A DNA stretch of 63,162 nt, filler included, from Reclinomonas americana ATCC 50394 (Eukaryota), in assembly GCA_048213135.1 (NCBI GenBank). It is 20 parts of 20 records of this genome, joined end to end, with 100 filler letters (N's around TTAATTAATTAA, not from the genome) between each part and the next. Parts side by side here need not be neighbours in the genome. Positions count along the whole stretch, not along the records: positions 51,522 to 54,564 come from AFZH01023681.1; 19 more parts are not named here. One strand, 5' to 3'. Below the pieces are notes generated by a model that made no database searches, was not told where the DNA came from, and saw nothing but the letters and a program-made list of their open reading frames with translations. The translations under genes and the position numbers were made by a program. Positions within the stretch are counted from its first letter, which is position 1; each line of letters starts with the position of its first letter. Of this stretch, positions 3,021-63,162 are shown piece after piece.

Positions 3021-3120
3021 NNNNNNNNNNNNNNNNNNNNNNNNNNNNNNNNNNNNNNNNNNNNTTAATTAATTAANNNNNNNNNNNNNNNNNNNNNNNN
3101 NNNNNNNNNNNNNNNNNNNN

Positions 3121-22700: not shown

Positions 22701-25700
22701 TTCAATACTCCAACCAGCCGGGTTCCATCGCTGCTGGAGGCCACTGCACTCCATGGGCGATTCGCATCGGTAGCCCTAGCCGTCCACGTCACACCAGAGT
22801 CAGTAGATGTGTACAACAGACCACCGTTCGATACAGCCACCAGCTTGGTACCATCACTGTCGGACGCCACTGCAATCCAGTTTCGGGTTGAGTCGCGCGC
22901 TGTCCACGTCGCGCCAGAGTCGATGGAAGTATAGATCTGGCCGTTGTTCACCACAGCCACAAGCTTGGTGCCGTCACTGCTGGAGGCCAGTCCAATCCAG
23001 TTACGAGCGGAATCACGAGCTGTCCACGTCACGCCAGAGTCGACAGACGTGTAGATCTGACCTCCAGAGTGAGCAGCCACCAATTTGGTACCGTCACTGC
23101 TCGAGGCCACTGCAAACCAGTCGCGATTGGAGTTGCGCGCCGTCCACGTCACGCCAGAGTCGATCGAAGTGTAAATCTGACCACCCTGCACTGCAGCCAC
23201 CAGCTTGGTGCCGCTATCGTCGGAGGCCATAGCTCGCCAGGTGCGGGTGGAATCGCGAGCAATCCACGTTACACCAGAGTCGGTGGNNNNNNNNNNNNNN
23301 NNNNNNNNNNNNNNNNNNNNNNNNNNNNNNTTAATTAATTAANNNNNNNNNNNNNNNNNNNNNNNNNNNNNNNNNNNNNNNNNNNNTTTGAGTCACGCGC
23401 CGTCCACGTCACGCCAGAGTCAGTGGAGGTGTACAGCTGGCCACTATCAACACTGGCCACCATCAGCGAGCCATTACTATTGGAAGACATTCCTCTCCAG
23501 TTACGACTCGCATCGCGCGCCGTCCACGTGACGCCAGAGTCAGTGGAGGTGTAAAGCTGACCACCACTGACACTGGCCACCACCACGGCGCCATTTCCGC
23601 TGTACGCCACTCCATTCCAGTTGCGACTAGTATCTCGAGCCGTCCACGTCACTCCAGAGTCCGTAGATGTGTACAGCTGGCCACCACTAACACTGGCCAC
23701 CACCAACGTGCCATTACTGTTGGATGCCACTCCGCTCCAGTTGCGACTGGAATCTCGCGCCGTCCACGTTACGCCAGAGTCAGTGGAGGTGTAGATCTGG
23801 CCGTTCTGCACCACAGCCACCAGCTTGGTGCCGTCGTCACTGGAGGCAACCGCCGCCCAGTTGCCAACATACCCGAGCGTGGCAACGGAGGAGCTTGTCA
23901 AGCACGACGTTCCTGTTCAAAAGAGCATGATCAGCACACAGACACAGAGAGAGAACGAATACGACCGCAAAGAAACAACAATACTTACCACTGCATGGAC
24001 TTGTGCAGGTGCATGTTCCGTTTGCACCACAAGTACCATGTCCAGAGCATGTAATGGCGGGGCTGCAGTTGCAGCTGGCGTTGGTGAAATCACCAGTGCA
24101 GTCACACGCACCGGTTGTTGAGTTACAATTGCCATGTCCAGAGCAGGTGGTGGCCGCCACACAGTTCACATTGCATGATGCACCGTAAAAGTTGGTATTG
24201 CACGAGCAAGTACCATTTGTACTGCATGTGCCATGGCCAGAGCACGTCACCGATGGACTACAGTTGCAGCTGGCATTGGTGTAGTCGCCAGTGCACTGGC
24301 ACGTGCCGTCACTCTTGCACGTTCCGTGACCGGAGCACGTCGCCGATGGACTGCAGTTGCAGCTGCCATTGGTGTAGTCGCCCGTGCACAGACACGTGCC
24401 GTCACTCTTGCATGATCCGTGTCCAGAGCACGTCGCCGATGGACTGCAGTTGCAGCTGGCATTGGTGTAGTCACCCGTGCAGTCACATGCCCCCGTTGTC
24501 GTGTTGCACGTGCCGCGTCCAGAGCACGTCGTCGTTGCCACACAGTTCACATTGCATGATGCGCCGTAGTAGTTGGCAGCGCACGTACAAGTGCCATTGG
24601 TGTTGCATATGCCATGACCAGAGCACGTCGTGCTGGGACTGCAGTTGCAGCTGGCATTCGTGTATTCATCAGTGCACAGACACGTGCCGTCACTTTTGCA
24701 CGATCCGTGTCCAGAGCACGTCGCCGACGGACTGCAGTTGCAGCTGGTATTGGTGTAGTCACCCGTGCAGTCACACGCCCCAGTCGTCGTGTTGCACGTG
24801 CCGTGTCCAGAGCACGTCGTTGCCGCCACACAATTCACGTTGCATGATGTGCCGTAGTAGTCGGCAACGCACGTACAAGTGCCATTGGTGTTGCATGTAC
24901 CATGACCAGAGCACGTCGTGCTGGGACTGCAGTTGCAGCTGGCATTCGTGTAGTCGTCAGTGCACTGACAAGTGCCGTCACTCTTGCACGTTCCATGACC
25001 AGAGCACGTGGTGCTGGGACTGCAGTGTGTGCTGCACGAGGAGCCGTAATAGTCAGCGTTGCACTGGCATGTGCCGTCACTCTTGCATGTTCCGTGTCCA
25101 GAGCACGTCGCCGACGGACTGCAGTTGCAGCTAGCATTGGTGTAGTCACCCGTGCAGTCACACGCCCCCGTTGTCGTGTTGCACGTGCCGTGTCCAGAGC
25201 ACGTCGTTGNNNNNNNNNNNNNNNNNNNNNNNNNNNNNNNNNNNNNNNNNNNNTTAATTAATTAANNNNNNNNNNNNNNNNNNNNNNNNNNNNNNNNNNN
25301 NNNNNNNNNGAGCACGTCGTGCTGGGACTGCAGTTGCAGCTGGCATTCGTGTAGTCGTCCGTGCACAGGCACGAGCCGTCACCTTGACAACTTCCATGAG
25401 CCGAGCACGTCGCCGATGGACTGCAGTTGCAGCTGACATTGGTGTAGTCGCCCGTGCAATCACACGACCCTGTTGACGCGTTGCACGTGCCATGCCCGGA
25501 GCATGTCGTCGTTGCCACACAGTTCACATTGCATGATGCGCCGTAGTAGTTGGCACTGCATGTGCAAGTGCCATTGGTGTTGCATGAGCCATGACCAGAG
25601 CACGAGGTGCTGGGACTGCAGTTGCAGCTGGCATTCGTGTAGTCGCCAGTGCAGTCACACGCCCCAGTCGTCACGTTGCACGTGCCGTGTGCAGAGCACG

Positions 25701-39079: not shown

Positions 39080-42000
39080 TCACCTCCTGGCCCCGAATCG
39101 TGTCAGCGGTGGCGGTGGTGTGGCTAGTTGCCGCAACAACGTCGCTTGCGCCTCGGTGAGACCGGTGCAGCCCTCGATCATGAGCTCCGGGCATCGCAAG
39201 TCGCCAGTGCCGGTGTGCCACAGCAGCGTCGAGCAGTACGCACCACCGCGATCCAGCGACGACCGCGACGGCGTTCCGCCTGCACCGGCGGGTGCAGGCG
39301 ACGCGGAGGATCGTGGAGTGCTGCTGTCGGGGAACAGATTGAATTGCACTTGTCGCACCGAAAGCACGCGCGGATCGTCCACCGTGTCGTCGTCGCCGGC
39401 GGCGGGAGCACTGGCACCGGCACCAGCGGCCGACAGATCCTCGGCCGAGGACGAAAGCCAGGACAGGTCGCGCGACGACCGGTCCGGCTGTGCACTCCAC
39501 AGACGCAGCACTGCGTCGGCGCCGCCACTCAGGATGCGCTTGGTGTCGGGCGACAGCGCAATTGAGTACACTGGCACCCGCTGATTGATGCGATGGATCA
39601 GCTCGCCCGTCGAGGCAATCCACAGATTGATCATGCCGTCGGTGCCACACGACGCCACGGCCTTGGAGTCCGGTGCCCAGCACACACACGTCACTGGCGA
39701 AGCGTGTGCACGCTCAATCGTGCGCAGACACTCGCCGCGGTCGGCGTTCCAGATGCGCACCGAGCTGTCGAAACCACCCGTCGCAATGCGGCGTGTGCTC
39801 GGCGAAAACGCCACACTCAAAATCGCCGACGAGTGTCCGTGCACGGCACGCACCAACGAGCCAGCCGCCACATTCCACAATCGCAGCACATTGTCACCAC
39901 TCCCTGTGCGCACAAAAATGAGTGAGCGTGACTCGTAGAACATGATTCGCTCGCGCAGAGATTCGACAAACCCGCAGCGGCAAACTGCCCATCCGCACTC
40001 AGCGCCACGGCGCGGAACCGCTCTGGCCACTCGCCGAACCCACGCAACAACTCGCCCGTGTCCACGTCCCACACGCGCACGCTTCCGTCGAACGAGCACG
40101 ACACAATGAGCGCGCCGTCCGAGGAAAAGGCCACCGAGCGTACCCAGTGCGAATGGCCGCGCAGCACACTGAGGCAGATGCCGCGCTCCGTGTCCCACAA
40201 TCGCACCGTCTTGTCTTCGCTGCCCGACGCAATCACCACCCGGTCGGTGGTGATGGCCACGGCGCGGACGGCTGCCGTGTGGCCACCGAGAAGCAGGATG
40301 CACTGCGCCGTTGCCGCATTCCACACACGCACAGTACAGTCCTCCGAACCCGACACAGCGAGCTTGCCGTCGGTCGAGAAGGCCACACAGCGAATCCAAC
40401 CCGAGTGCTGATCGCGTGCCTGCTCACCCTCAGGTCTCTCATCGACATCCCACGCACGGGCCGAGCGATCCACCGAGCCCGTCATCACCAGGAAGGCGCC
40501 GGAGATGTCGGCGACAGTTGGACTGCCACACGCAACGCCACGCACGGCGGCCGTGTGGCCACGCAACACGCGAATGCACTGACCGCGACACTGGCTCAGC
40601 GGACGAATGTCGTATACTCGCGCGGTGTTGTCGCCACTGCCGGAGACCACGAAGCCGCCGTCGCGAGAGAAGCGCGAGGAAAACACGGCGCCCGAGTGAC
40701 CGTCCAAGTCGAACAGCTTCTCCATGGTCACCGCATCGTACACGGCCGTTCGCCTGCAGTCAGCACGCAGGCAGGTGAGGAAACAATGGAAGACTATGCC
40801 ATAAGCTTCATATACACACCTGGAATCGCCGGCGGCCAAGATCTTGGATCCATCGTTGGCGACGTGCACTGTGCGCACGGGGCCACCATGGCCCTCCAAC
40901 ACGTGCACACACGCCGCGCTCGCCAAGTTCCACAGCCGCACCGACTCGTCGGCACTGCCAGTGACAAGAAGGGTGCCGTCGGGGGAGAAATCCACCGCCA
41001 GCACCTCGTCCTGGTGACCGGCCAGCTCGCTCACTCGATGGCCCGTCTCCACATCAAACACGCGCGCCAGATTGTCGCCGCAGGCCGAGGCCACGAGACG
41101 CGCGTTGGGACTCAGGGCGACACCGTGCACACACTCCGGGTGCGCCGCAATTGTCCGCACGCACTCGCCGGCGACGGTTTTCCACACACGAATCGTACGA
41201 TCGCGACTCCCCGACACGGCCACCTCACCGTCGGCACTCACGGCAACCGAGGTCACCACGAGTGTGTGGCCGGTCATGGTGGACGCGAGCGAGGCAGCAG
41301 CCGTGTTCCATCGTCGCAGTGAGCCGTCGTGTCCACCGGTCAGCAACCACGCCCCGTCGGCGGACGACGCCACACATGTGATCATGGTCGAATGCTGTGA
41401 TGCAAAAATGAAGGGGGGAGAGGCGAGATGAGCTCGCTGTGAAGCGGAACAAGGTGACGATAGAATGCACCTGCAAGAACGGCTGCTTGCCGAGTTGCAC
41501 GCCCTTCATTTGACACCGCCGGAACCGCACATTGGCGAGCCAGGCGCCCGTCAGATCCACATTGCACAGATCCGCATCCTCAAAATTGGCCCCATCCAAC
41601 ATGGCCTGCACCGACGCACACGAGAATCAGTCAGCGGGCGACAAGGCACACACGCGGGGGCACAGCGGCACGCAACATTGGACAGGTTGGCGCCAGCGAT
41701 GCGCACACCCCGCATGTCGGACTTGACCAGCGAAACTCGCGCGGCATTGAGCACGGTAATGGCATTGGCGGCCGCCAGAGCCATGTCGGGTTGGTGACGC
41801 GAGGCGTGCACGATGCCGAGAAGGTGCGTCTCGGCCTGCTGTCTCCTTTGCACCATCTTGCCCAGGAAGCGGACAAAATCCGTCTGTGGTGCCACTGAGG
41901 GTCAGCGACAACGGTAAGAAGAGCAAAGTGATGCACACTACCTCGGCGGTAATGAGGCGAGCACATAGTGGGTGACTCCTCAGTGCAGCATCTCCCGCAA

Positions 42001-42138: not shown

Positions 42139-44642
42139 TCACTCACTCACTCACTCACTCACTCACTCACTCACTCACTCACTCACTCACTCACGCACGC
42201 ACTCACTCACTCACTCACTCACTCACTCACTCACACTCACTCACTCACTCACACACACACACACCTCCGANNNNNNNNNNNNNNNNNNNNNNNNNNNNNN
42301 NNNNNNNNNNNNNNTTAATTAATTAANNNNNNNNNNNNNNNNNNNNNNNNNNNNNNNNNNNNNNNNNNNNGCACGCACTCACTCACTCACTCACTCACTC
42401 ACTCACTCACACTCACTCACTCACTCACACACACACACACCTCCCGTAGCGACTTGTCGACAAATCGATACCGATACCCATCACCTCCAGCTCGCAGTAA
42501 ACCCTTTGCCCCAAATGCGCAGTGAGGCGCGACAGCATGGGAGGCGAGAAAAAATGATCACATGCGACGCAACAGCATGAACAAGAGTGGTCAGTGGGTC
42601 TCCCGACGAAACCGTCAGCTGGTCTACGTCTCTCCTCAGAATAAAGTATTGGTGCATGCTGAGCATGCGCGAGGCCACTGCTCGGTACAGCTCGAGCAGC
42701 AGCGACGAGGTGACGGCGCCATCGGTCGCCGTGTCCATTCTCCGCGACTGCAACCGCGCGCCAACAATGAGCAAGACAGCGATGAAGAGGGAGACGCGCA
42801 CTTGTGTTACGCACCACCGACGTGATTCCGTGCGAGTACCACAACACAAACTCACGGATGACGTCGTTTCGCTCCACCACCTGCCCTGCATCCCGCGTCA
42901 TGCATTCCAAACGCGGCAGAGCTCGCACCAGCAGCGAAAGATAAAGAGGCTGCGAGAAAAGCGAGATGAGCACGATGTAGCGTGGGCAATTGGGGTCGAA
43001 TCGCTCGCTACTCACCACTTGTGCGAGTTCAGTCAGGCCAGGAATGGAGGCAATAGCATCGCGCAGCTGCCGCCAGTCGACCGAGCGGGAGGCGGAGCCA
43101 CTTCGCTTGATGTACCTGCACGAGAGAAGGGCATGAGCTTTCCAACTCGCCACAGGGGACAGGAGACAGTGGCGCAACTCGCGCAAGAACTCGTCGACTT
43201 GCGTCTCCAAGAATGGCTGCAGGTAGCACTCGCTGACGACCACAGGTTCCGGCACACTGGCTCTCCGGCTCCTCTTGCTGTTTGGCGGAGGAACTGGAGC
43301 ATGGAAAAAGGAAGCCAGTGGCCGACCAAGATGCCGTGCATAGTCCAAGCGACAAGTGACAATCAGCTTGAACTTCCAGTCCTGCATCCGCGCTCACCAC
43401 CTGAGCGATCGAACCAACAGCCATCACGTAGGGAGACACGAACCGCAAAATTCGTTGCATGGAACACCGCCGATGGCAAGCTCTGCAGCTCGTCCAGCCC
43501 GTCAATCACCAACACAATGTGATACTTTTTCTGCAGCCTTGTAATCTGCAGACAACATACTCGACTGATGAGCGACAGCCCCGCGCGAACTCCAACTCGC
43601 AAGTCGCACACCTCACTCGAAGTGAATCCCTCGTGCTCCAGGAACTGCTCCATCCACAAGTGCTCCGGTTCCAGCAACACATCGGGGCGCACCAACAGCG
43701 GCACAGCGTCGCCCTTGCCCCACGTTCTCCACAGATGGGTGACGACGTGCCTCGCAAGCACACTCTTCCCGGAGCCAGCATCGCCCAGCACCAGCAGCAC
43801 CTGCAAATGCCTTCAGCGGGGAGGAGGAGGGGGGCAAAGAGACAACACCACAACTGCACCTTGGAAACCATGTTGGTCGGGCTGAGAAACGCCTGCACCA
43901 GGTCCATCTGCACACACACGATCCATCAATGAGTTGTCTCGCAATCAGTGCGCCACTGTGTGATTCCCACGCAACCGCTGGCACCGGTGCCGATGCCACA
44001 TGTGCCGAGGCCGTCGCCATGACACTGACATGACACACATCGACCACCGCCGGACCCGTATGCAACGCCTCTTGCAGGTGTCGCTCCTGCAAGTGCTGCA
44101 GCTTGACATCCAGCGACACTCGCCCTCGCTGAACAGCACAGCATGAGCTCCAACACTGAGAGCACACACATGCACAAAGAAGGACGCAACGTGTGCCGCA
44201 CTCAATACTGTGCCCTCGGAGGCCTCGGAGAGCTCTATGACCGCGCGCGTGTTTTTGCGTGTGAGTGGACATGTCGGTTCACTCGCTGCACCACGCCTCT
44301 CTCTCGTGTGCGCGTGTGTGTGCGTGTGCGCCTCTCTCCATAACACAATGCACTGACAGAGACACGAGCACACACACGAAAGAACCAGACAGAGAAAAGA
44401 AGCGTAACTGCAGACAATGCAACTGTACACACACACACACACAGAGACAAGCAGCCTCCCATCTCTGTCTTGATGCTCTCACACTGCTGCCGCTGCTCAC
44501 CATACGCACTCGGATGACCACCAATGGCATACGCAGAGCCTCCATTGGTCGTTCCACCGATGAGATGATGCCGCGACGCACCCACTCCACCTCCACCACC
44601 GCCCACCACAGTCGCCTTCTCAGACGAACAGCGGCATCCCAT
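39080..44642 (-). CDS. NLR-like STAND protein: NACHT, pentapeptide repeats and WD40 repeats, with N-terminal MGCRCSS
   Basis: Walker A GDAGSGKS; Walker B VLVIDGLDEL; KLIVTCRLDY; AAANAITVL followed by pentapeptide repeats (DMRGVRIAGANLSNAMLDGANFEDADL); about 14 GH...WD repeats; C-terminal IEGCTGLTEAQATLLRQL. The gene spans the 42271 gap inside an (ACTC)n intron. The exact first exon is inferred. Confidence 0.88.
42104..42440 (+). repeat. (CA)n/(ACTC)n microsatellite flanking an assembly gap, intronic
   Basis: Direct observation on both sides of the gap. Confidence 0.9.
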
Positions 44643-50766: not shown

Positions 50767-51521
50767 CTCCCGATCGCAACGCGCTGAGTTCGAGAGAGGA
50801 TCTCGAGAGTGGAATGTAGATGGCGCTGCGGTTGGAAAGATGCAGACGCAGCGGCGACTCCTCGTCCACAGCTACTCGGTGATGGAAAGAATGAGAACCT
50901 TGGGAGAGAGAAGAAGCAACAAACTGTGCGCAGGACCTGCCTGATATCAGTAGTAGATGGTGATCATCATGCAGCTGCTGCTGTTTGGATTAGTAAATTT
51001 GTTGTTGTTGTACGTTCGCGATCGTCCTTGTCCTCGTTCAAAACTCGTCCGTTCGCTTGCAGCTGAGAGAGAAGAAAAGATCATGTTGCGTGCATATCTG
51101 CATCTCTTCTCCTTCTTGGGTGCGGTACTCACTCGAATGCATCATGCATGCTTCCTGCGCGCAGGGATTTCGTCACTGTTGCGTCGGAGCTCCAAACTCT
51201 TGTTTGCATGCATGCTCCACTCACTCACTGTGAAACGCATGCACAGATTACTCGTTGCGTCTTGTTGTGCTGAGTGTGCAGAGAGTGTCCCTCGACAACA
51301 ACAACAGCAGAAGCGCTACGATAGCAAGCGCACTCGTGTACTTACCTCCTCGGTTTTTTCTTGCGGTGTTCTTGGGCAGACAATGACCCGGTGAGTGCCG
51401 ACTCTCCACTCAGTGCCTACCNNNNNNNNNNNNNNNNNNNNNNNNNNNNNNNNNNNNNNNNNNNNTTAATTAATTAANNNNNNNNNNNNNNNNNNNNNNN
51501 NNNNNNNNNNNNNNNNNNNNN

Positions 51522-53704
51522 GGCATTTGCAGCGACGATATGGCCACTCGATCGCGTACCGAGCCATCCGCCAACACAATCATGTCGTGTATCCGCGACG
51601 TGACAGGAATCATGTTGGTCTCGTCGCCTCGCCGCACATCGTACGTGCGAATGGTGCGGTCAAACGACGCAGTGACCTGTGTGCACATGCACAGTAAATG
51701 AGGACGCGCATCGCAGTCCCTCCGCCTCGCTCACTCACAATGCTGGCCGAGCCCATCAAAAAGCCGACGGAAACCACCTTTTCTCGATGTCCCATTAACG
51801 TGTGCAACAACTTGTTTCTCCTCGTCGACCACAGCAGCGTGCCACTGCGCAGATCACGGACAGAGCAATGAGGCCCGCGCAGCAGACCAAAAGATTGCGC
51901 ACGATTGCACGCAACTTGCTGTGCGAGGTGGCCGCCACCATGTCGCCCTCTGGTGACACACAACACCGCAAGAGGCCACTGGTGCTCTCCTCGAATCTCG
52001 TTGCCACACAACCTGTGGCACACAGTCAGCGATGGAGGAGGTGCCATTCGGATTCCGCTACGATGCATTTCCTCACGTTCCCTGCTGCTGGAGATGCACA
52101 ACTTTCTGTCCTCGGAGGCTGCGGGAGAGTGAGCGACACGCGACTCAAATCTAAAACCCGATCCCCCACACGCACACCTGACACAATGCTCTCGCCCAGC
52201 GAGTCAAACGTCACGCACATGATACCATCCTCGTGCACCAACTGCAGATGCGCAATGAGAAATGTCGCGAATCCTCAGTGTTGAGCGACGAAAAAAACAC
52301 GCACCAAGTCACCCAGATGATATCTCGGTAACCTCGGCGACTCCTCGGCGGCGGTCCTCGGCTGCTGCAGTGGCGACAAATCCGGGCGCCACTCGGTGCC
52401 GCTGCTGCGACGCAACGACATGCGAGAGAGACTGAAGGTTGCCGGAGTGGACGAAAATGTTGCAGCTGGCTGCAGGGAAGGCGAGCTCACGGCAGAGCTG
52501 CTCTTTGGCGGCAACGATGAAGACTGCCGTGCGGCACTGCCAGCCACCTGCATCGGCACGCCACCTCCGTCGCCACCATCAGCATCCTCGTCCTCACTGA
52601 ACACATCACCTCCGTCGTTGCTCTCGCCATCCGCCTCGCCATCAAAGTCGTCGCTGAATGTCGAGAGGGTGTTCAGCGCTGTCGCGGTGCCAGCGGCGGC
52701 GGCCGACGCGGCGACCAGCGAGGCTGCCGATCTTGCAGTGGCGGCGGTGGTGGTGGTGGTGGTCGTCGTCGTTGCAGTCACAGTGGTGGTGGTGGTGGAG
52801 GAGCTCGAGTCCGTGGCCGACGCTGTGGCACACAACTGTGAGCACTGGGGCCTGCGCGTAATGCACGCACCACCGCACGAAACTGTGCGACTGCGCTCGC
52901 TTCCTTCGCGGCTGTGCGCTGTTGAACGACAGACAGTAAATAATCGTCAGCCCCCCACGATCAGTAGCCACTCGACAAACGCAACGCCTTTCCGTGTTTG
53001 AGCTCCTCCACTTGCTGGTGCAAGGCATTGTTCTCGCGCTGCAGTCGCTGAATGATCTGCTCCAGGTTCCGCACTGTTGACAGCGACGCAGAAGTGAACA
53101 GAAGAAAGAAGGCCCTCGCGAGAGAGAGAGAGATCTACTCACCTTCTTCCCGAGCCGAGGCCACCTCCCGCATCATCGTCTGCCGTTCGTTGGCGTGCTG
53201 GTCGATGGTGGCGTTCAATCGAAGCACATACACCTTGCCGAGATCAATCTCAGCGTAGGCCTCTTGCAGTCTGCTCCCGCATGACAAGTATGTAACAGGA
53301 AGAAAAATCTCTCGGCAAGGCGACAGATGCATACCGTTTCTCCAAGTTGATGACAATCTCCTCATGTTCCTGCGCGGGCGTGAGTGTGTGCGCCTGACAA
53401 CTGTAATGCACAGGCACACGCACCTTTACGAAATGCGATGACACGTATCTTTGGCGCTGTACTCGCGGAGGATGAGGAAGAGACGGAAGAAGAGGAGATG
53501 TCTTCGGCACGCAACTCCATACGAGCGATCGGTGAAGAGGCCGTACAGAAGGCGACGCACACGCTCGACTTGTGCGTTGCGCTGAGGTGCACAAGAGAGA
53601 GTGAGGAAAGAAGGAAGAAGAGGGGTAGAATGAGAGAGGAATACCTGCACAAGTCGCTGCAGCACATTTGCGCGCCATTGGGGTTGGCCGCCACTCGCCT
53701 CCAT
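51522..53704 (-). CDS. ATG16: ATG16L1/TipD-like autophagy protein (ATG5-binding helix, coiled coil, WD40), 3' end lost in gap
   Basis: The N-terminal QWRANVLQRLVQRN resembles the ATG5-interacting helix. Coiled-coil exons follow. The WD40 LLHTLMGHREKVVSVGFLMGSASIVTASFDRTIRTYDVRRG follows the ATG16L1 pattern. Confidence 0.72.
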
Positions 53705-53921
53705 TGAAGGCGCGTCGGTGTGTGTGTCTCGATCTCCTGCGCCGTGAATCACACGCCGAGCAACTTGTCACAAACCCGGCATCTGAAAAAATGGCATCTC
53801 TCAATTGTGGCCCTATTTAAAATCCCATGCTCCGCGTGTAGGTTGTCGAGTGGCCTAGCGGGCGCAAATGTTTTTGTGGTTGCGCGGCTTTTCTCGTCGA
53901 TTGACTCAAGCTTCATTGTTT

Positions 53922-54004
53922 GCTTCAGTAACGCTGAAATCGCTCAATGGCAGGGCATTGGACTTCTAATCCAAAGGTTGCGGGTTCAAGTCCCGCCTGA
54001 AGCT
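53922..54004 (+). tRNA. tRNA-Arg (anticodon TCT) with an 11-nt insert (53930-53940) between the acceptor stem and D arm
   Basis: Acceptor GCTTCAG/CTGAAGC; D stem GCTC/GGGC; anticodon arm TTGGA-CTTCTAA-TCCAA; T arm GCGGG-TTCAAGT-CCCGC; followed by T runs. Confidence 0.85.
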
Positions 54005-54008
54005 TATC

Positions 54009-54035
54009 TTTTTATTTTTTTATTTTTTTATTTTT
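54009..54035 (+). terminator. RNA polymerase III oligo-T terminator of the tRNA gene
   Basis: Several runs of five or more T begin 5 nt after the tRNA 3' end. Confidence 0.7.
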
Positions 54036-54478: not shown

Positions 54479-54664
54479 CTGCAAATTGCACCGTTCAGTA
54501 TCACACCTGGCGTGACGAGCGCACAGGCAAGCGTCGACGTAACCAGCACGCAGATGCATCAGCCNNNNNNNNNNNNNNNNNNNNNNNNNNNNNNNNNNNN
54601 NNNNNNNNTTAATTAATTAANNNNNNNNNNNNNNNNNNNNNNNNNNNNNNNNNNNNNNNNNNNN

Positions 54665-54888
54665 CTGAGGCGATCCGAAGCGAATGCAGCCTGCCGCTCA
54701 CCAGCTGGGGCCTCGGCGCGGAGGACTGGCTCGGCAGCTACGGCATAAGCCGCCAGGGCGCCGTTCTGGTCCGCCCGGACGGCTTCGTGGCATGGCGGAC
54801 GCCGGAGCCAGCCGACGACCGGAAGGCCATGCTGCTCAGCGCCCTCGACCGGATCGGCCTGCGCGCCGAGGCTGGCGGAGAGGTCTGA
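54665..54888 (+). CDS. C-terminus of a bacterial FAD-dependent (aromatic-ring hydroxylase-type) monooxygenase
   Basis: Signature YGISRQGAVLVRPDGFVAWR. TGA 54886-54888 overlaps the next ATG. Confidence 0.85.
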
Positions 54889-55250
54889 TGAAACCTTCCG
54901 CGACGCTGACCAAGATTCTGGCCGTCGAGATCCTGCTCTTTGCCGGCGCCACGCTGGTCCATGCCGGCATCCTGATCGGCGGCCATGAGCACGGCTCGGC
55001 CAGGACGGCGGAAGGCGTGATCGCAGCCGTGCTGGTGCTCGGCCTGATCATCTGCCTGCTGCGCCCGGCGGCGATGCGGACGATCGCCCTCGCCGTGCAG
55101 GGTTTCGCGCTGCTCGGCACGCTGGTCGGCGTCTTTACGATCACTGGCGGCGTCGGGCCGCAGACGCTGGCGGACAAGGCCTTCCACGGCGCCCTGCTGA
55201 TGGTGCTCTTCGCCGGGCTGGTAGCCGCCTGGCGCGCACCGCGCGGCTAG
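54888..55250 (+). CDS. Bacterial hypothetical membrane protein, about 4 TM, 120 aa
   Basis: TGATG translational coupling; hydrophobic ORF MKPSATLTKILAVEILLFAG... Confidence 0.75.
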   Translation: MKPSATLTKILAVEILLFAGATLVHAGILIGGHEHGSARTAEGVIAAVLVLGLIICLLRPAAMRTIALAVQGFALLGTLVGVFTITGGVGPQTLADKAFHGALLMVLFAGLVAAWRAPRG

Positions 55251-56030
55251 AATTTCGGCGACCGGCGCTCGAAGAAGGCGGCGATGCCCTCGCGGAAATC
55301 CGCCGTGCCGGCGTTCGCGACGAAGTTCTGCTTCTCCAGGTCGAGCTGCGCATCGAAGGAGCCATGAGTCGCGGCCTGGACCAGTGCCTTGCTCGCCGCT
55401 TGCGCGCCGACGCTGCCGCGGGCGAGCTTTTCCGCCATGGCTCGCGCCGTCTCCATCAGCTCATCCTTCGGCACGAGGCGGTTGACCAGGCCGAGCTGGA
55501 GCGCGGTCTGCGCATTCATCGCCTCGTTGAGCAGCACGAATTCCAGCGCCCGGCGCGGGCCGAGCAACTGCGTCAGCGTCCAGGTGGTGCCGCCATCGGG
55601 GCTGGTGCCGAGCTTGGTATAGGCCGAGAGGAAGCTCGCATCCTCTGCCGCCACCACAAGGTCGCAGGCGAGCGCCAGCCCGACGCCGCCGCCGGCGACC
55701 GGCCCCTGTACCGCCGCGATCACCAGCTGCGGCATCGCCTTGATCAGGCGCATCAGCGTGTGGAAGCGGTCGATCAGCTTCGTCGCGGTCTGCGGCGCGC
55801 CGGGCAGGTCGCTCTGGAAGCGGGCGAGATCGCCCCCCGCCATGAAGGAGCGCCCTGCCCCGGCCAGGATGACCGCGCGGATCGTCTGGTCGGCTGCGAG
55901 CCCCGAGAACGCCGCGACCAGCGCATCCGCCATCGCCTCGTCGAGGACGTTGAGCACCTTGGGGCGGTTCATGGTCACAATAAGGATCGGCCCATGCCGC
56001 TCCGTGATCACCACCTCGCCTGCCGCATCG
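55247..56030 (-). CDS. Enoyl-CoA hydratase/isomerase (crotonase, PaaG-like); start in or near the gap
   Basis: Motifs FMAGGDL, AAVQGPVAGGGVGLALACD, LGTSPDGG and DFREGIAAFFERRSPKF. Confidence 0.92.
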
Positions 56031-56130
56031 NNNNNNNNNNNNNNNNNNNNNNNNNNNNNNNNNNNNNNNNNNNNTTAATTAATTAANNNNNNNNNNNNNN
56101 NNNNNNNNNNNNNNNNNNNNNNNNNNNNNN

Positions 56131-57216
56131 CTCGGCCTTGAAGCACATCGCATCGGTCTCGCCGGCACGCATCACCACCAACCGGCACCGGCCGAGTTCC
56201 GGATGGCGCGCGGCAACGGCTGCAACCTGCTCCGGTCGGACGAACATGCCCTTGACCTTGGCCGACTGGTCGGCCCGGCCGAGCCAGCCGCGGATGCGCT
56301 GGTTGGTGCGCCCGCAAGGCGACAAGCCCGGCAACGTCGCGCTGAGATCGCCGACGGCGAAGCGGATCAATGGCTTCTTCGGATCGAGGATGGTGACGGC
56401 GATCTCGCCGATCTCGCCCTCCGCCACGGGCTGGCCGGTGCCGGGCCGCAGGATCTCGACGATGATGTCCTCGTTGAGGACGAGGCCTTCGCGGGCCGGC
56501 GTCTCATAGGCGATGACGCCGCATTCGGCGGTGGCGTAGCACTGATAGGCGTCGATGCCGCGCTCGCGGAATTCGGCCTGCAGCGAGGGCGGGAAAGCGG
56601 CACCGGAAACCATCGCCCGCTTCAGCGAGGAGAGATCGCGCCCGCGCGCCGCGCCGAGATCGAGCAGGATCTTCAGGAAGTCCGGCACGCCGGCATAGAG
56701 CGTCGGGCGATAGGCCTCGATCAGGTCGAGCTGGGCGTCGCTATTGCCGGGCCCTGCCGGGATCACGGCGCAGCCGAGCACGCGCGCCCCGGCATCGAAA
56801 CACCATGCGCCGGGCGTCAGGTGATAGGAGAAGGTGTTGAGCACGATGTCACGCCAGCCGGCGCCGGTCGCGGCGAGCGCGCGGGCGACCCGCCAGGGAT
56901 CATCGTCATGGCTCTCGGGCTCGAAGATCGGCCCCGGCGACATCATCAAGCGGCGATAGTCGCTCGGACGGCCCGGTAGCAAACCGCCAAAGGGCGGCTT
57001 GCCGCGCTGGGTCGCCGGCAAATCCGACTTGCGCAGCACCGGCAGGCGGGCCAGCGGCGCCCGGTCGGTGACGGCCTGCGGATCGATGCCGCGCAGATGC
57101 TTGCGCCAGGCGGGCAGCCGCTGCGCCGCCGCCAACACCTGCGGCAGCCGCCGGAACAGATCGGCCTCGCGGCGCGCGGGCGTGCGGGTCTCCCGGCGGT
57201 CGTAGTGCTTCCCCAT
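56131..57216 (-). CDS. Phenylacetate-CoA ligase (PaaK/F390) family protein, C-terminus in gap
   Basis: Motifs LPVLRKSDL, MSPGPIFEP, FSYHLTPGA, YQCYATAECG, IRFAVGDLS and GRADQSAKVKGMFV. Confidence 0.9.
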
Positions 57217-57223
57217 GACGGCC

Positions 57224-57547
57224 TCAGGCGAGCCAGCGCTTGCGGCGCCGGTAGTGCTTGACCGCGTGGTAGTCGACCTTCTGATGGCCGCCGAGATAGG
57301 CGTCGGCGACGTCGGGATTTGCGCTCAGCACGGCAGCCTCCCCGCTCATCAGGATACGGCCGTTCTCGATCAGGTAGCCGTAATGGGCGATCTCCAGCGC
57401 CGCCGTCGCGTTCTGCTCGACCAGCAGCACGGCGACGCCGTCGCGCTCATTGACGTTGCGGACGATGTCGAAGATCTCGTCGACGAGGAAGGGCGCAAGG
57501 CCGAGGCTCGGCTCGTCCAGCATCAGCAGGCGCGGTTCTGTCATCAA

Positions 57548-57583
<36 letters not shown>

Positions 57584-58015
57584 GGAGAGATAGCCGGCCT
57601 CGGCCTTGGCCCGCTGGGCGAGGCGCGGGAAGGTCTCGAACATCCGGTCGATCAGCGCCGTGACATGGCCGCGCTCGCGATGCATGGTCGCGGCCGCGAT
57701 CAGGTTCTCCTTCGGCGTCAGATGGCCGAAGACGCGCCGTCCCTCCAGCACATGGACGATGCCGAGGCGCACGCGATCGGGCGGATCGACCGCCAGGATC
57801 GAGTGGCCGTCGAAGCTGATCTCGCCACGGGTGACGGCGCCACGCTCGGGCTTGAGCAGGCCCGAGATCGATTTCAGCACGGTGCTCTTGCCGGCGCCGT
57901 TGGCGCCGAGCACGGCGACGAGCCCCTTATCGGGCACCTCGATCGAGACGCCGCGCACGGCGAGGAAGACCTGATCGTAGACGATCTCGATATTGTTCAG
58001 CGCCAGCAGCGTCAT
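57224..58015 (-). CDS. Branched-chain amino acid-type ABC transporter ATPase (LivF-like)
   Basis: Motifs GANGAGKS, LSGGEQQM, LDEPSLGLAP and VEQN. Confidence 0.95.
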
Positions 58016-58067
58016 CGGCCCGATCCGAAAAGGGGCGGTGCGGAACACCCGCGCCGCCCGCGCAGGG

Positions 58068-59410
58068 TCATTTCCCGGACTTCTTGAACTCGTCCGAGTT
58101 CTTGCGGATTTCCTCCCAGACCACGTCCTGGTTGGCGGAGAACCAGTCGGTGATCGGCACGAACCTGGCGCCGTCCCAGCGCGCGATCCGGCCCATGCCG
58201 CCGCCCTGGTGGTCNNNNNNNNNNNNNNNNNNNNNNNNNNNNNNNNNNNNNNNNNNNNTTAATTAATTAANNNNNNNNNNNNNNNNNNNNNNNNNNNNNN
58301 NNNNNNNNNNNNNNGCGGCAGCAGGCCGTCGGCGGTGAAGTTGGTGATCGAGCGCAAGCCTTCGTTGAGCCAGGGGCCGGTGACCGGGCCGTTCGGCGCC
58401 TTCTCGGCCGCCCTGCGCACGCCCTCGACCATCAGCGTCGCCATCTGGACGCCGTAGTTGTAGTAGGCGGTGCCGACCTTGTTCTCGGGGCCGGCGCCTT
58501 TGCCCTTGCCGACGACGTCGGCGAGGATGTCCTTGATCACCTTGGGCTCGCGGCCGCCGACGCAGGGCTCGACCTTCATCACGCCCTTGGCCGCCTCGCG
58601 CCCGACCACATCCATGTCGGATTCGGAGAGCCAGACGCTGCCGGAGACGCGGTCCATCGGCAGGCCGTTGCGGATCGCCTCGGTCAGCGCCACGGTCTGG
58701 CCGACGCCGGCACCCCAGAAGATCACGAAATCGGGCCGCGCACGGCGCACCTGCGGCCAGATCGCCGACTGGTCGTTGCCCGGCGGCGTATAGGGGAAGG
58801 CGGCGAGCTCGTAGCCTTCCTTCTTGGCGAGGACGTTGAGGATCGGCAGCGGCTCCTTGCCGAAGGGCGTGTCGATGTGGACGAAGACGATCTTCTTGCC
58901 CTTGAGGCTGCCCTTCTCGGTCTTCTTGAACTGCTCGATGATCAGGCCCGCCTGGGTCCAGTAATTGATCGAGAGCGGCAGCACATAGGGGAAGGCGCTG
59001 CCGTCGGCGGCGTCGCTGCGGCCGGAATAGGCGGTGATCATGTTGATCTTGTCCTCGAGCGCGCGCGGTACCAGAGCCCGCGCCACCGGCGTCGAGAGCG
59101 GGTCGATCAGCACCGCGCCCTCGCGCTTGCCACGCTCATAGGCCTCGATCGCGCGCGGCAGGTCGTTGGCGTGGTCGGTGATATCAGCGACGATCTTGTA
59201 GCCGCCGACGCCGCCGCGCTCGTTGACCAGGGTGAAGTAGTCGCGCTGGCCCTGGTTATATTCCGAGGTGACGAAGGTGTAGATGCGGGTGAAGTCCTGC
59301 GGCAGCGTGAAGCGGACGATCTTCTCCTGGGCAAAGACCTGCACCGGAAGGGCGAGCGGCACGGCCAGCGCGGCCGAGCCGGCGATGAACGAACGGCGAT
59401 CGAGCGACAT
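58068..59410 (-). CDS. ABC transporter substrate-binding protein (LivJ/K superfamily) with Tat-like signal, split by a gap
   Basis: Starts MSLDRRSFIAGSAAL (twin arginine); VNERGGVGG motif. The C-terminal part DHQGGGMGRI...KSGK* lies beyond the gap. Confidence 0.9.
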
Positions 59411-59447
59411 CCTGTTTCCTCCAGCCCTGTCGTTGATTGAGGCACCG

Positions 59448-60521
59448 TCACCGCTGGGCATGGCGGAACGGCCAGACGAGCAAGTAATTGCGGAAATTGG
59501 CGTAGATCTTGGCGAGGCCGAGCGGCTCGTAGAGCAGGAAGCCGATCACCAGCGCGCCATAAGCCATCAATGGCAGATGGGCGCGCAGGTCGATCGGCAA
59601 GGACCAGCCGAATGTGCCGGCGGTGAAGCCAAGCAAATTGTTGAGCAGGATCGGCGCGAACAGGATGAGCGCCGTGCCGAAGAACGGGCCGAGCACGCTG
59701 CCGAGACCGCCGACGATGATCATCGCCAGGATCTGGATCGAGAGCTCGATATGGAACTGGTCGGGCGAGATCGCCCTGAGATAGGTCACCGCCAGCAGCG
59801 AGCCGACGACGCCGCCGATGAAGGACGAGACCCAGAACGCCAGCAGCTTGTAGCGGAAGGTCGAGATGCCGAGGATCTGCGCGGCGTAGTCCTTCTCGCG
59901 CAAAGCCGCCAGGGCGCGGCCGAAGCTGGTGCGGCGGACGTTCAGCATGAACAGTGTGATGACGAAGCAGACGCCGAAGGCGAGGTAATAGGTCGGCAGG
60001 TCGCCTTGCAGCGGGATGCCCAAGAAGCGGACCGGTGGCACCTGCAAGGTCGCGAGCGAGCCGCCGCTGATCACCGAAGAGTGCGAGATGACGAAGTCGA
60101 CGACATACTGCATGGCGAGCGTCGCCATCGCCAGATAAATGCCCTTCATGCGCAGGGCCGCGCCGCCGAACATGGTGCCGATGGTGGCGCTGAGCAGGCC
60201 GCCGGCGATCATGGCGATCTCGAGCGGCACGCCGAGGCGCACCAGATGGACCGAGCCATAGGCGCCGATGCCCATCACCGCGCCATAGCCGAGATGGATC
60301 TGGCCGGACCAGCCCATCAGCAAGTTGAGGCCGAGCGCCGCTGAGGTCCAGATCAGCCAGGGCAGCAGGTAGCCGGAGACATAGAGCCGGTCGAACAGGA
60401 AGGGCGCCGCCAGCAGGATGGCGATGACCGCGATGATCAGGCCGCGGTCGAAGCCGAGCGGGAACAGCTGGCGCTCGTCCTGATAGCGCGTGTGGCGGAT
60501 GCCGGCGCGACGATAGAACAC
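59448..60521 (-). CDS. ABC transporter permease (LivM-like)
   Basis: Motifs GLNLLMGWSGQIHLG, GIYLAMATLA, GRALAALRE and MIIVGGLGS. Confidence 0.93.
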   Translation of the reverse strand: MFYRRAGIRHTRYQDERQLFPLGFDRGLIIAVIAILLAAPFLFDRLYVSGYLLPWLIWTSAALGLNLLMGWSGQIHLGYGAVMGIGAYGSVHLVRLGVPLEIAMIAGGLLSATIGTMFGGAALRMKGIYLAMATLAMQYVVDFVISHSSVISGGSLATLQVPPVRFLGIPLQGDLPTYYLAFGVCFVITLFMLNVRRTSFGRALAALREKDYAAQILGISTFRYKLLAFWVSSFIGGVVGSLLAVTYLRAISPDQFHIELSIQILAMIIVGGLGSVLGPFFGTALILFAPILLNNLLGFTAGTFGWSLPIDLRAHLPLMAYGALVIGFLLYEPLGLAKIYANFRNYLLVWPFRHAQR

Positions 60522-60525
60522 GGCG

Positions 60526-61523
60526 TCAGACCCTCTCGATATGGTGACGGCCGAACAGGCCGTGCGGCTTGAGCAGGAGCGTCACCAGGATGATCACGGC
60601 CGCGACCACGTCGCGCGAGCCGCCGCCGACCAGCGGGTCGAGCACGCCGGTGGCGAGGCTCTCGGCGACGCCAACGATGACGCCGGCGATCAACACGCCC
60701 GGAATGGAGTCGAGCCCGCCGAGGATGGCGATGGCGAGCGCCTTGATCAGCAGCAGCGAGAGCGACCAGTCGATGCCCTGGGTGCTGCCCCAGAGCACGC
60801 CGGCGGCGGTGGCGGAAACGGCGGCGAGCCCCCAGGCGACGGCGATCGCGCGCTCGACCCTGATGCCGACCGACCAGGAGGCGGTCTGGTCGTCGGCGAC
60901 GGCGCGCATCACCACGCCGTAGCGCGAGTTGAAGAAGAACGAGTGAGNNNNNNNNNNNNNNNNNNNNNNNNNNNNNNNNNNNNNNNNNNNNTTAATTAAT
61001 TAANNNNNNNNNNNNNNNNNNNNNNNNNNNNNNNNNNNNNNNNNNNNAACAGTGAGAGCAGGATCAGCAGCAGCGAGATCGAGCCGCCGATCATCGTGGA
61101 GCGATTGAGCAGGAGATCGCCGACGAAGAGCGGCTGCTGCGGCAGGCCGATATCGAGGCGCTTGACCGCCGCACCGAAGATGCCGGGGAGAAGGCCGCGC
61201 AGCATGATCTCAACGCCGAGCGTCAGCATGATCGTCATGATCACCGGCTGGCCGATCATCCGGCGCAGCGCGATGCGTTCCATCAGCAGGCCGAAGCCGA
61301 ACATGCCAACGAGTGCAACGGGAATCGCCAGCCACATCGGCAGGCCGACCAAAGTGGCGAGCGCCCAGGTGACGTAGCCGCCGGTCATGGCGATGGCGCC
61401 CTGGGCGAGATTGGCGGTGCCGGAGGTCTTGTAGATCAGCACGATGCCGAGCGAGACCAGCGCATACATCAGGCCGACGAAGACGCCGTTGGCCGAGAGT
61501 TCCGCGAGCAGGATCCAGTCCAT
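60526..61523 (-). CDS. ABC transporter permease (LivH-like), split by a gap
   Basis: Motifs YALVSLGIVLIYKTSG.NLAQG, MRAVADD, ILGGLDSIPG and KPHGLFG. Confidence 0.93.
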
Positions 61524-63162
61524 CAGGCGACGACCTCACTGATCTTGAGCGTCCGCCGGATCACGCCGCGCTCCCCGTTCTCATAGGCGATGGTGGCGTC
61601 GAACACGGTCTCGGTCGCCCCGCTGTAGAGCGCCTCGATCAGCGAGGCGTAGGTGGTCTCGATGGTGTTGCGGCGCAGCTTGCGGGTGCGGGTGATCTCG
61701 CCGTCGTCGGCGTCGAAATCCTTGTGCAGGTTCGAGAAGCGCCTGATGCGCAGGCCGTCCGGCTGCGTGCCGTTGACGTGCCTGACCACCTGGCCGATCA
61801 GCGCCTGCACCTCGGGCCGCTGCGAGAGCTCGGCATAGGAGGTGTAGGAGATGCCGCGCTCCTCGGCCCAGTGGCCGACCGCGTCGAAATCGATGCAGAC
61901 GATGGCGGTGAGCTGGTCGCGCCCGGCGCCGATCACCGCGACATTACGGATATAGGGGCTGAATTTCAGCCGGTTCTCGATGAAGTTCGGGATGTAGCGC
62001 TCGCCCGAGGCGGTGCGCACGACCTCGCTGACGCGGCCGAGCACGACGAGCTGGCCGTCCTCGTCGATGCGCCCGGCATCGCCGGTGTGCAGCCAGCCAT
62101 CGACCAGCGCCTTGGCGCTGCTTTCGGGATCGTCATAGTAGCCGTCAACCACCGAGGTGGAGCGCACCAGGATCTCGCCGCTGTCGTCGATCCTGATCTG
62201 GCTACCTTCCATCGGCTTGCCGACCGTGTGCAGCTTGACCTGCCCCTCGGTCTGCGCCGCCGTCAGCGCGCAGGTCTCGGTCTGGCCGTAGAACTGCTTC
62301 AGCTTGATGCCGAGCGCCCGGAAGAACAGGAAGGTGTCCTCGCCGAGCGCTTCGCCGCCCGTGAAGGCGCGCTCGGCGCGTCCCAATCCCAGATGATCGC
62401 GCAGCGGCGCATAGACCAGCACGTTGCCGACGGCATCAAGCAGCTTTTCCGTCAGCGTCAGTGAGCCCCCGGCGAGGCGCTTGCGCTCGTAGGCGACGGC
62501 GCGCTCCATCGTCGTCTCGAACAGCCAGCGCTTGAACGGCGTCGAGTTCTTCATGCCGACCTGGACGCGGGTCAGCATCTGGTCCCAGGCGCGCGGCGCG
62601 GCGAGATAGAAGGTCGGCGAGACCTCGCGCAGGTCGCGCATCACCGTCTCCTGGCGCTCGGGGATGTTGATCGTCGCCGCCATCATCATGCCGGCGCCCA
62701 GCGTGAAGACGAAGTCGCCGACCCAGGCGGTGGGCAGATAGGCGTAGAGTTCCTCGTGCTGGCGGAAATAGCCGCTCGCCCTCGCGTTGAGCAGGCCGCC
62801 GGTGACGTTGCGATGGCGCAGCGGGATACCCTTGGGCAGGCCCGTCGTGCCGGATGAGTGCAGCAGCACGGAGATGTCGTCGGCCTGCGGCTCGTCGACG
62901 AAGCGCCTGAGGAGATTGGGCTCGCGCGCCAGCCGCTCGCGGCCCTTGGCGACCAGTGCATCGAGCGACATCAGACCGGGCAGGTCGTAGGTATCGAGCC
63001 CACGCTCGTCATCGTAGAGGATGGTGGCGACGCGGCCGGTCGCGTCGCGCAGCTGCAGCAGCTTGTCGACCTGCTCCTGATCCTCGGCGATGCCGACGGG
63101 CGGCGCGCCATGGCGGGTCGCGACGATCAGCTCCTCGAGCGGAACGTCCGGAAAGACCGGCG
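61523..63162 (-). CDS. Long-chain acyl-CoA synthetase (AMP-binding); 5' end beyond the window
   Basis: Motifs SSGTTGLPKG, YGQTE, WLHTGDAG, IENRLKFSPYI and EITRTRKLRR. Confidence 0.93.
   Translation of the reverse strand, partial: PVFPDVPLEELIVATRHGAPPVGIAEDQEQVDKLLQLRDATGRVATILYDDERGLDTYDLPGLMSLDALVAKGRERLAREPNLLRRFVDEPQADDISVLLHSSGTTGLPKGIPLRHRNVTGGLLNARASGYFRQHEELYAYLPTAWVGDFVFTLGAGMMMAATINIPERQETVMRDLREVSPTFYLAAPRAWDQMLTRVQVGMKNSTPFKRWLFETTMERAVAYERKRLAGGSLTLTEKLLDAVGNVLVYAPLRDHLGLGRAERAFTGGEALGEDTFLFFRALGIKLKQFYGQTETCALTAAQTEGQVKLHTVGKPMEGSQIRIDDSGEILVRSTSVVDGYYDDPESSAKALVDGWLHTGDAGRIDEDGQLVVLGRVSEVVRTASGERYIPNFIENRLKFSPYIRNVAVIGAGRDQLTAIVCIDFDAVGHWAEERGISYTSYAELSQRPEVQALIGQVVRHVNGTQPDGLRIRRFSNLHKDFDADDGEITRTRKLRRNTIETTYASLIEALYSGATETVFDATIAYENGERGVIRRTLKISEVVA

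Follow-up and report, generated by a model that had tools for sequence, protein, structure and literature searches.

Is the 11-nt segment that parts the 5' acceptor strand of a tRNA-Arg(UCU) gene of Reclinomonas americana ATCC 50394 from the rest of the gene an intron, spliced at a position other than 37/38, or is it the lesion of a broken gene copy? The gene lies in a 63,162-nt stretch of DNA from assembly GCA_048213135.1 (the window), which consists of 20 contigs of 1,207-9,051 nt separated by 19 identical 100-nt spacers (N44 + TTAATTAATTAA + N44; e.g., at 3021-3120, 51422-51521, and 54565-54664), and it is carried by a contig of 3,043 nt (AFZH01023681.1; 51522-54564, GC 0.563). Here we report that the displaced strand represents the gene's ancestral 5' terminus, and that the insert between tRNA positions 8 and 9 has the geometry of a relaxed tRNA splicing motif. 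We propose, as a candidate reading to which we assign a probability of roughly 0.42, that the insert is an ectopic tRNA intron, which would be cut out by TSEN, the tRNA splicing endonuclease, and sealed by an RNA ligase.

The Rfam tRNA model RF00005 matches 53933-54004 with a score of 53.3 bits against a gathering score of 29; this is the sole family match at gathering level in the window, where no further tRNA-like match was found at E-values up to 5. A first-pass annotation of this DNA had noted that a fold beginning at 53933 leaves three mismatches in the acceptor stem, and the RF00005 alignment indeed marks pairs 4, 5, and 7 as non-standard, so that the contiguous strand 53933-53939 as encoded forms 4 of the 7 pairs with the 3' acceptor strand. 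ARAGORN called no tRNA gene either in the whole window or in the native local region. Located 11 nt upstream of the start of the Rfam model, however, is a perfect 5' acceptor strand, GCTTCAG (53922-53928), the exact complement of CTGAAGC (53997-54003), with a T next to it at 53929. Excision of 53930-53940, or of 53929-53939, which is equivalent for restoring the cloverleaf, yields an Arg(UCU) tRNA of 71 nt plus the discriminator T, with stems of 7, 4, 5, and 5 bp in which 21 of 21 pairs are standard, one of them a U-G in the D stem. The perfect pairing and the resulting 72-nt cloverleaf had both been predicted in the first-pass annotation, as had the A-box-like TCGCTCAATGG rebuilt by the last T of the insert, which is present and contiguous at 53940-53950.

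When deletion variants of the locus were submitted to ARAGORN, 183 of 1,350 were called, as tRNA-Arg(tct), and the called variants with 7-14 nt deleted within 53926-53941 all start at 53922; the scan is tolerant, in that all deletions of 7-14 nt pass and a length of 11 nt is not singled out. Apart from the insert, we found no lesion in the tRNA body, such as a broken stem or a lost invariant base: every stem is whole, and the posterior probability in the Rfam alignment is marked by an asterisk throughout. The heptamer GCTTCAG is found 5 times on the plus strand of the window and 6 times on both strands, compared with 11.7 occurrences expected, and the 8-mer GCTTCAGT (GCTTCAG plus T) is present in 89 of 200,000 random 40-mers generated at the composition of the contig and in 174 of 200,000 sequences obtained by shuffling the 40 nt that precede the gene. 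Because the presence of GCTTCAGT upstream is far beyond chance, the displaced strand is the ancestral 5' end of the gene, since parted from its body by 11 nt. The best explanation of the locus as a whole is a nuclear tRNA-Arg(UCU) gene of the RNA polymerase III type, and we infer that it is transcribed. A downstream T run is expected for polymerase III genes, and the one observed here, which sits in an array of 8-nt T-rich repeats spanning 54004-54035, has the appearance of a terminator for RNA polymerase III.

[quoted passage not shown] A relaxed motif with one bulge and a loop, termed hBH or BHL (bulge-helix-loop), is usual in eukaryotic nuclear pre-tRNAs (PMC3728597; here and below, statements attributed to papers by their PubMed Central (PMC) numbers hold for the passages of those papers drawn on here). 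We coded the BHB rule and compared the three 11-nt deletions that preserve the acceptor strand. In register 8/9, all 4 pairs of helix H are Watson-Crick, between T3T4C5A6 and the TGAA of the insert (53935-53938), and they are followed by a 3-nt bulge A,T|C9, composed of the last two bases of the insert and C9, and then by a closing helix h of 2 bp (C2:G10 and G1:C11), which places the 3' cut within the bulge. In registers 7/8 and 9/10, H has only 0-1 of 4 pairs, and the BHL geometry is found at 8/9 alone. The 4-bp helix and its closing pairs, both drawn in the first-pass annotation, also appear in the minimum free energy (MFE) fold of the 24-mer 53922-53945, in which h and the helix are separated by the 3-nt bulge AUC. 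Among random 11-mers placed at the same site, helix H forms with 4 of 4 Watson-Crick pairs in 952 of 200,000 (0.48%), and in 4,424 of 200,000 (2.2%) when G-U pairs are allowed. As for the cut positions proposed earlier, the putative 3' cut agrees with the bulge, and the putative 5' cut, two bases past H, fits if G7 and U8 are unpaired in a 7-nt loop. Judged from its sequence, the insert would belong to the BHB/BHL class both by restoration of the cloverleaf and by the geometry of helix and bulge.

A second unusual property of the locus lies in its leader. The segment AAGCTTCA is complementary at 8 of 8 positions to TGAAGCTT, which reaches from the 3' acceptor strand across the discriminator to the first base of the trailer. 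A complement of 8 nt was reached in 28 of 20,000 shuffles of the leader (0.14%). For comparison, we collected 49 related tRNA-Arg(UCU) loci from metagenome contigs using a permissive pattern placed on the anticodon arm and the T arm; these loci share the anticodon arm and none is a close relative. In the 42 distinct loci for which 40 nt of leader were available, the maximum length of such a complement ranges from 2-7 nt, and 8 nt was reached in 0 of 42. In the MFE fold of 106 nt (53905-54010), the 3' strand is paired to the leader segment, and the 5' strand lies in the BHL hairpin; this fold has a free energy of -34.8 kcal/mol (z = -3.05), and 1 of 200 shuffles was as stable. These results suggest a helper role for the leader segment. 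As to its origin, we rejected the possibility that the segment is a piece of a longer decayed tRNA copy, with 0 Rfam matches in 53760-53935, and likewise that such a copy lies upstream, as no significant similarity to the tRNA was found in the 122 nt upstream, the score of which is matched by 983 of 2,000 shuffles.

Taken as a splicing substrate, the locus could work as follows. A precursor starting upstream of 53908 would pair its leader segment with the 3' acceptor strand, thereby freeing the 5' strand to fold onto the insert. In the relaxed bulge-helix-loop formed in this way, G1:C11 and C2:G10 would close the structure, the T3-A6/TGAA helix of 4 bp would follow, and the bulge A,U|C9 would hold the 3' cut, while the 5' cut would fall after U8, in the loop. 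Cutting and ligation would then join 53929 to 53941, after which the 5' strand would displace the leader from the 3' strand, and RNase P and tRNase Z would finish the ends.

Findings from other systems favour such a pathway. The eukaryotic endonuclease is able to cut BHB substrates (PMC4090602, PMC3728597, PMC10485636), and the TSEN enzymes of many eukaryotes other than animals and fungi have been suggested to read local structure (PMC10485636). In Cyanidioschyzon merolae, introns of 11-69 bp with hBH/BHL motifs are spliced from sites other than 37/38, as shown by northern blot and reverse-transcription PCR (RT-PCR); most tRNA genes are affected, and the sites of the 42 introns are 37/38, the D stem, the D loop, the variable arm, the T stem, and the T loop (PMC3728597). 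The insert studied here resembles them in being short (11 nt), in lying away from 37/38, in its 4-bp helix with one 3-nt bulge and a loop, which fits hBH, and in that its removal restores the cloverleaf, whereas it concerns one gene that is known from sequence alone.

Nucleomorph genomes are tiny and AT-rich, in contrast to the contig examined here (GC 0.56). Their tRNA genes nevertheless offer a parallel for very short inserts in eukaryotic tRNA genes, since cryptophyte and chlorarachniophyte nucleomorphs carry D-arm and T-arm inserts of 3-24 nt, the removal of which was demonstrated by RT-PCR (Kawach 2005 and Maruyama 2010, as cited in PMC4090602 and PMC3728597). Most nucleomorph inserts cannot form a BHB (PMC3728597), while the insert described here fits the relaxed form. 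The non-canonical tRNA introns of archaea occur at sites that include position 3/4 in Thermoproteales (PMC4090602; tRNAscan-SE 2.0, PMC8450103). In these systems, a transplantable BHB sets the position of the intron, and introns in or next to the acceptor stem require pairing between exon strand and intron ahead of splicing, as would be the case here; the archaeal enzymes are symmetric, however, and usually act on a strict hBHBh' motif, whereas the present gene is eukaryote-like in its tRNA type and terminator and has the relaxed form only. If real, the intron would operate in the same way as the C. merolae hBH/BHL introns and the archaeal non-canonical introns, and it would be new in its position (8/9) and probably in its lineage.

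The most serious alternative is that the locus is a recently disrupted, unspliced copy or allele, in which an 11-nt insertion between positions 8 and 10 leaves a transcript that gives no usable tRNA, while intact paralogues supply Arg(UCU) and the fits of the BHL and the leader are coincidental; we regard this as a substantial possibility that falls short of probable. Short insertions in eukaryotic tRNA genes are indeed found mostly in one of many synonymous copies, and these are presumed to be pseudogenes (PMC4090602). The present case shares with them a short insertion, a single observed copy, and a eukaryote in which splicing outside 37/38 is not known, and it differs from them in position, since the presumed pseudogenes are interrupted in the D or T arms, and in having splice geometry and an undamaged remainder of the gene. 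The 3-kb unplaced contig is of a kind that often holds divergent alleles, and the gene may be one of these. Moreover, no second example of such an insert was found in the window or among the 49 relatives.

Further observations weigh against splicing at 8/9, and some of them would be natural in a disrupted copy. The product spliced at 8/9 would carry C9, whereas the Rfam consensus at this position is A and a purine is found in 49 of 49 relatives (45 G and 2 A by script; G in L004 and A in L048 by eye). The neighbouring deletion, 53931-53941, would give A9, the more natural ancestral state for a disrupted gene, but it offers no BHL. The interpretation offered in the first-pass annotation holds for its structural half, a non-random displaced strand and a splice register found at 8/9 only, but it had missed the conflict between C9 and the purine of the relatives, the competition of the acceptor stem with the BHL fold, the position of the gene on a short contig among unplaced and partly bacterial ones, and the complementary leader segment. 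All 49 relatives, distant as they are, have an uninterrupted 5' half. The pairs G7:C and T8(U8):G can lengthen the helix to 6 bp with a loop AAC, in which case the 5' site, earlier placed after the second unpaired base, lies at the end of the helix. The local hairpin (-5.0 kcal/mol, z = -1.61) is not significantly stable, as 15 of 200 shuffles fold as well. In the 83-nt precursor, the cloverleaf with the insert looped out reaches -25.4 kcal/mol, compared with -12.7 for the BHL conformer and -16.9 for the naive cloverleaf; the BHL fold is predicted to be much weaker than the competing acceptor stem, and the 5' strand alone would pair with the 3' strand, not with the insert. The lack of significant stability of the hairpin and its being outcompeted by the acceptor stem also count in favour of a disrupted copy.

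Precedent is likewise unfavourable. None of the 42 C. merolae introns described in PMC3728597 lies between the acceptor and D stems, the papers drawn on here place no intron of any eukaryote at that junction, the published ectopic cases in eukaryotes are limited to some unicellular algae and nucleomorphs (PMC13578239, PMC4090602), and the TSEN of animals and fungi is considered restricted to 37/38 (PMC10485636). A limited literature search found no report of a tRNA intron at 8/9, nor of an ectopic intron in the nucleus of a non-photosynthetic eukaryote. Lastly, the locus is placed on an unplaced contig of 3,043 bp, in an assembly that also contains bacterial contigs.

What would a disruption have had to look like? 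A tandem-duplication origin of the insert was considered and rejected: Tandem Repeats Finder reported no array over 53900-53960 at a score of at least 30, and the comparison of 11-nt registers gave 6 of 11 matches by eye. No template of at least 8 nt for the insert was found in the 3-kb contig, where the longest matches are of 7 nt, distant, and at about chance level. The sole local relation of the insert is an inverted repeat of 5-6 nt with the adjacent exon. Because the insert is neither a tandem repeat nor templated in the contig, the usual mutational origins of insertions are not seen here, which counts against a disrupted copy. Furthermore, since the rest of the gene is undamaged, the disruption would be very recent; a decaying pseudogene would not preserve 61 nt intact. 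A disrupted copy would also need several independent coincidences, including the formation of H in the exact register (0.48% with Watson-Crick pairs, 2.2% with G-U) and the 8-nt complement in the leader.

An intron accounts naturally for the intact body, the fit of the register, and the complement in the leader, at the cost of C9, of a lack of precedent, and of resting on a single locus. At less than even odds, we favour the reading of the insert as a spliced intron because a broken copy would require at once a very recent event, a non-templated 11-mer in splice register (0.5-2%), and a rare leader complement (0.14%).

Two observations on the relatives are added for completeness. In two of the metagenome loci, L041 and L045, what appears by eye to be a tandem duplication of ~21 nt, comprising leader and the first 11 nt of tRNA-Arg(UCU), precedes an intact gene; these loci would represent natural duplications of the 5' ends of tRNA genes that leave the downstream copy intact. 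An exact search with the 39-mer of the tRNA 3' half gave 0 matches in the viral, metagenome, and prokaryote-genome collections.

The assembly itself is a further possible source of the insert. If the 11 nt were an assembly or sequencing artefact, or the contig belonged to another organism in the sample, the insert would be absent from the true genome; we consider this very improbable. The four last contigs of the window (54665-63162) have a GC content of 0.67-0.70, compared with 0.53-0.62 elsewhere, and Pfam matches on their minus strand include an enoyl-CoA hydratase, two AMP-binding ligases, and a branched-chain amino-acid ABC transporter (ATPase, periplasmic binding protein, and two permease pieces); judging by these sequences, they are probably derived from a bacterial contaminant or associate. 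Because these contigs carry a gene set of bacterial type, the unplaced bin of the assembly is heterogeneous, which lends an artefact some plausibility. On the other hand, a non-repetitive 11-nt insertion is atypical of read or assembly error, mimicry of splice geometry would be unexpected from such an error, and the contig with the tRNA gene has a GC content (0.563) like that of the other eukaryote-like contigs.

The least probable alternative, which we judge hardly credible, is that the naive call gives the form in which the gene is used, with its 5' end at 53933, the tandem G4-A69/A5-G68 and the A7-C66 mismatches tolerated or mended by 5' editing, and 53922-53932 a mere leader: the Rfam model does prefer the alignment at 53933, stacking of tandem G-A pairs is possible in RNA helices, and template-dependent 5' tRNA repair occurs in some protist mitochondria, but known 5' editing is confined to positions 1-3 and does not extend to 4, 5, and 7, ARAGORN rejects this form of the gene, the perfect upstream 8-mer GCTTCAGT is left unaccounted for, and the naive cloverleaf reaches only -16.9 kcal/mol against -25.4 kcal/mol with the upstream strand. 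The probability that remains beyond the spliced intron and these three alternatives is assigned to no reading.

Table 1. Features of the tRNA-Arg(UCU) locus; positions count along the window.
Feature	Positions	Strand	Basis or remark
Leader segment ('A copy') AAGCTTCA	53908-53915	+	Inverted repeat with TGAAGCTT at 53998-54005
True 5' acceptor strand GCTTCAG, tRNA positions 1-7	53922-53928	+	Complement of 53997-54003
T at tRNA position 8	53929	+	T8 in 47 of 47 parsed relatives
11-nt insert AACGCTGAAAT, candidate intron between positions 8 and 9	53930-53940	+	
Naive tRNA call, starting inside the insert	53933-54004	+	53.3 bits, 3 non-standard acceptor pairs
tRNA body, positions 9-72	53941-54003	+	Rfam alignment and pair list
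D arm	53942-53956	+	Part of tRNA body
Anticodon arm	53958-53974	+	Part of tRNA body
Anticodon TCT (Arg, reads AGA), 7-nt loop	53965-53967	+	Rfam alignment; ARAGORN on deletion variants
Variable loop	53975-53979	+	Part of tRNA body
T arm	53980-53996	+	Part of tRNA body
3' acceptor strand	53997-54003	+	Part of tRNA body
Discriminator T, position 73; CCA not encoded	54004	+	
T run, five T from 54009, 5 nt past the discriminator	54009-54035	+	Putative terminator

The window resembles a pseudomolecule built from unplaced contigs, and because its contigs are merely joined, neighbourhood across the spacers is meaningless. Pfam scans of 208 open reading frames (ORFs) identified, in the contigs other than the last four, EGF/teneurin-EGF and BNR/sortilin proteins, WD40, NACHT, and LRR domains, and pieces of an aspartyl protease; no marker of a particular lineage was found among the 208. 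Seven contigs (19932-35498) encode one repeated protein family, in which BNR/Sortilin-Vps10 repeats are followed by EGF_2/teneurin-type EGF domains; over the N-terminal half, its identity to bacterial and metagenome proteins is 37-70%, and the fragmentation of the assembly into small contigs is probably due to this family. The aspartyl-protease match is split over two frames (35856-36833 and 36823-37443), and near this stretch lie a NACHT piece, a WD40 ORF with 9 repeats, and a pentapeptide-repeat piece; the genes at 35856-37443, 43366-43812, and 39817-41626 seem to be interrupted by introns or frame shifts. A contig of 1,207 nt (16492-17698) is free of stop codons from end to end on either strand (402 aa each), and Pfam gave no match to it. 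Adjoining the tRNA gene, the minus strand at 52961-53704 seems to carry a coiled-coil gene. It contains four GT...AG gaps of 54-69 nt, and a hand-made model of five exons for it loses frame after exon 2.

A wider proposal can be built on the spliced-intron reading: that a genuine intron at 8/9 is combined with a leader that serves as temporary partner of the 3' strand, freeing the 5' strand for a structure-reading endonuclease; that no other eukaryotic tRNA intron has been seen before at the junction of the acceptor stem and D arm, and that, given a non-photosynthetic host, no ectopic one has been seen before outside algae and nucleomorphs; and that more such introns are hidden among the 'missing' or low-scoring tRNA genes of this genome. 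As a whole, we consider this proposal unlikely. The tRNA finders used for eukaryotes never search for introns outside 37/38 (PMC10485636).

A 2023 review of TSEN asks whether eukaryotes outside the animals, fungi, and amoebozoans, in which TSEN may respond to local structure, splice tRNAs away from 37/38 (PMC10485636), and the locus described here provides a concrete candidate for this open question. If the insert is not spliced, the locus would represent an unusually clean case of a tRNA gene killed by one short insertion. If it is spliced, ectopic tRNA introns would not be limited to red algae and their derivatives, the zone in which introns are permitted would reach the junction of the acceptor stem and the D arm, and the 'missing' or low-scoring tRNA genes of protists would need to be read again.
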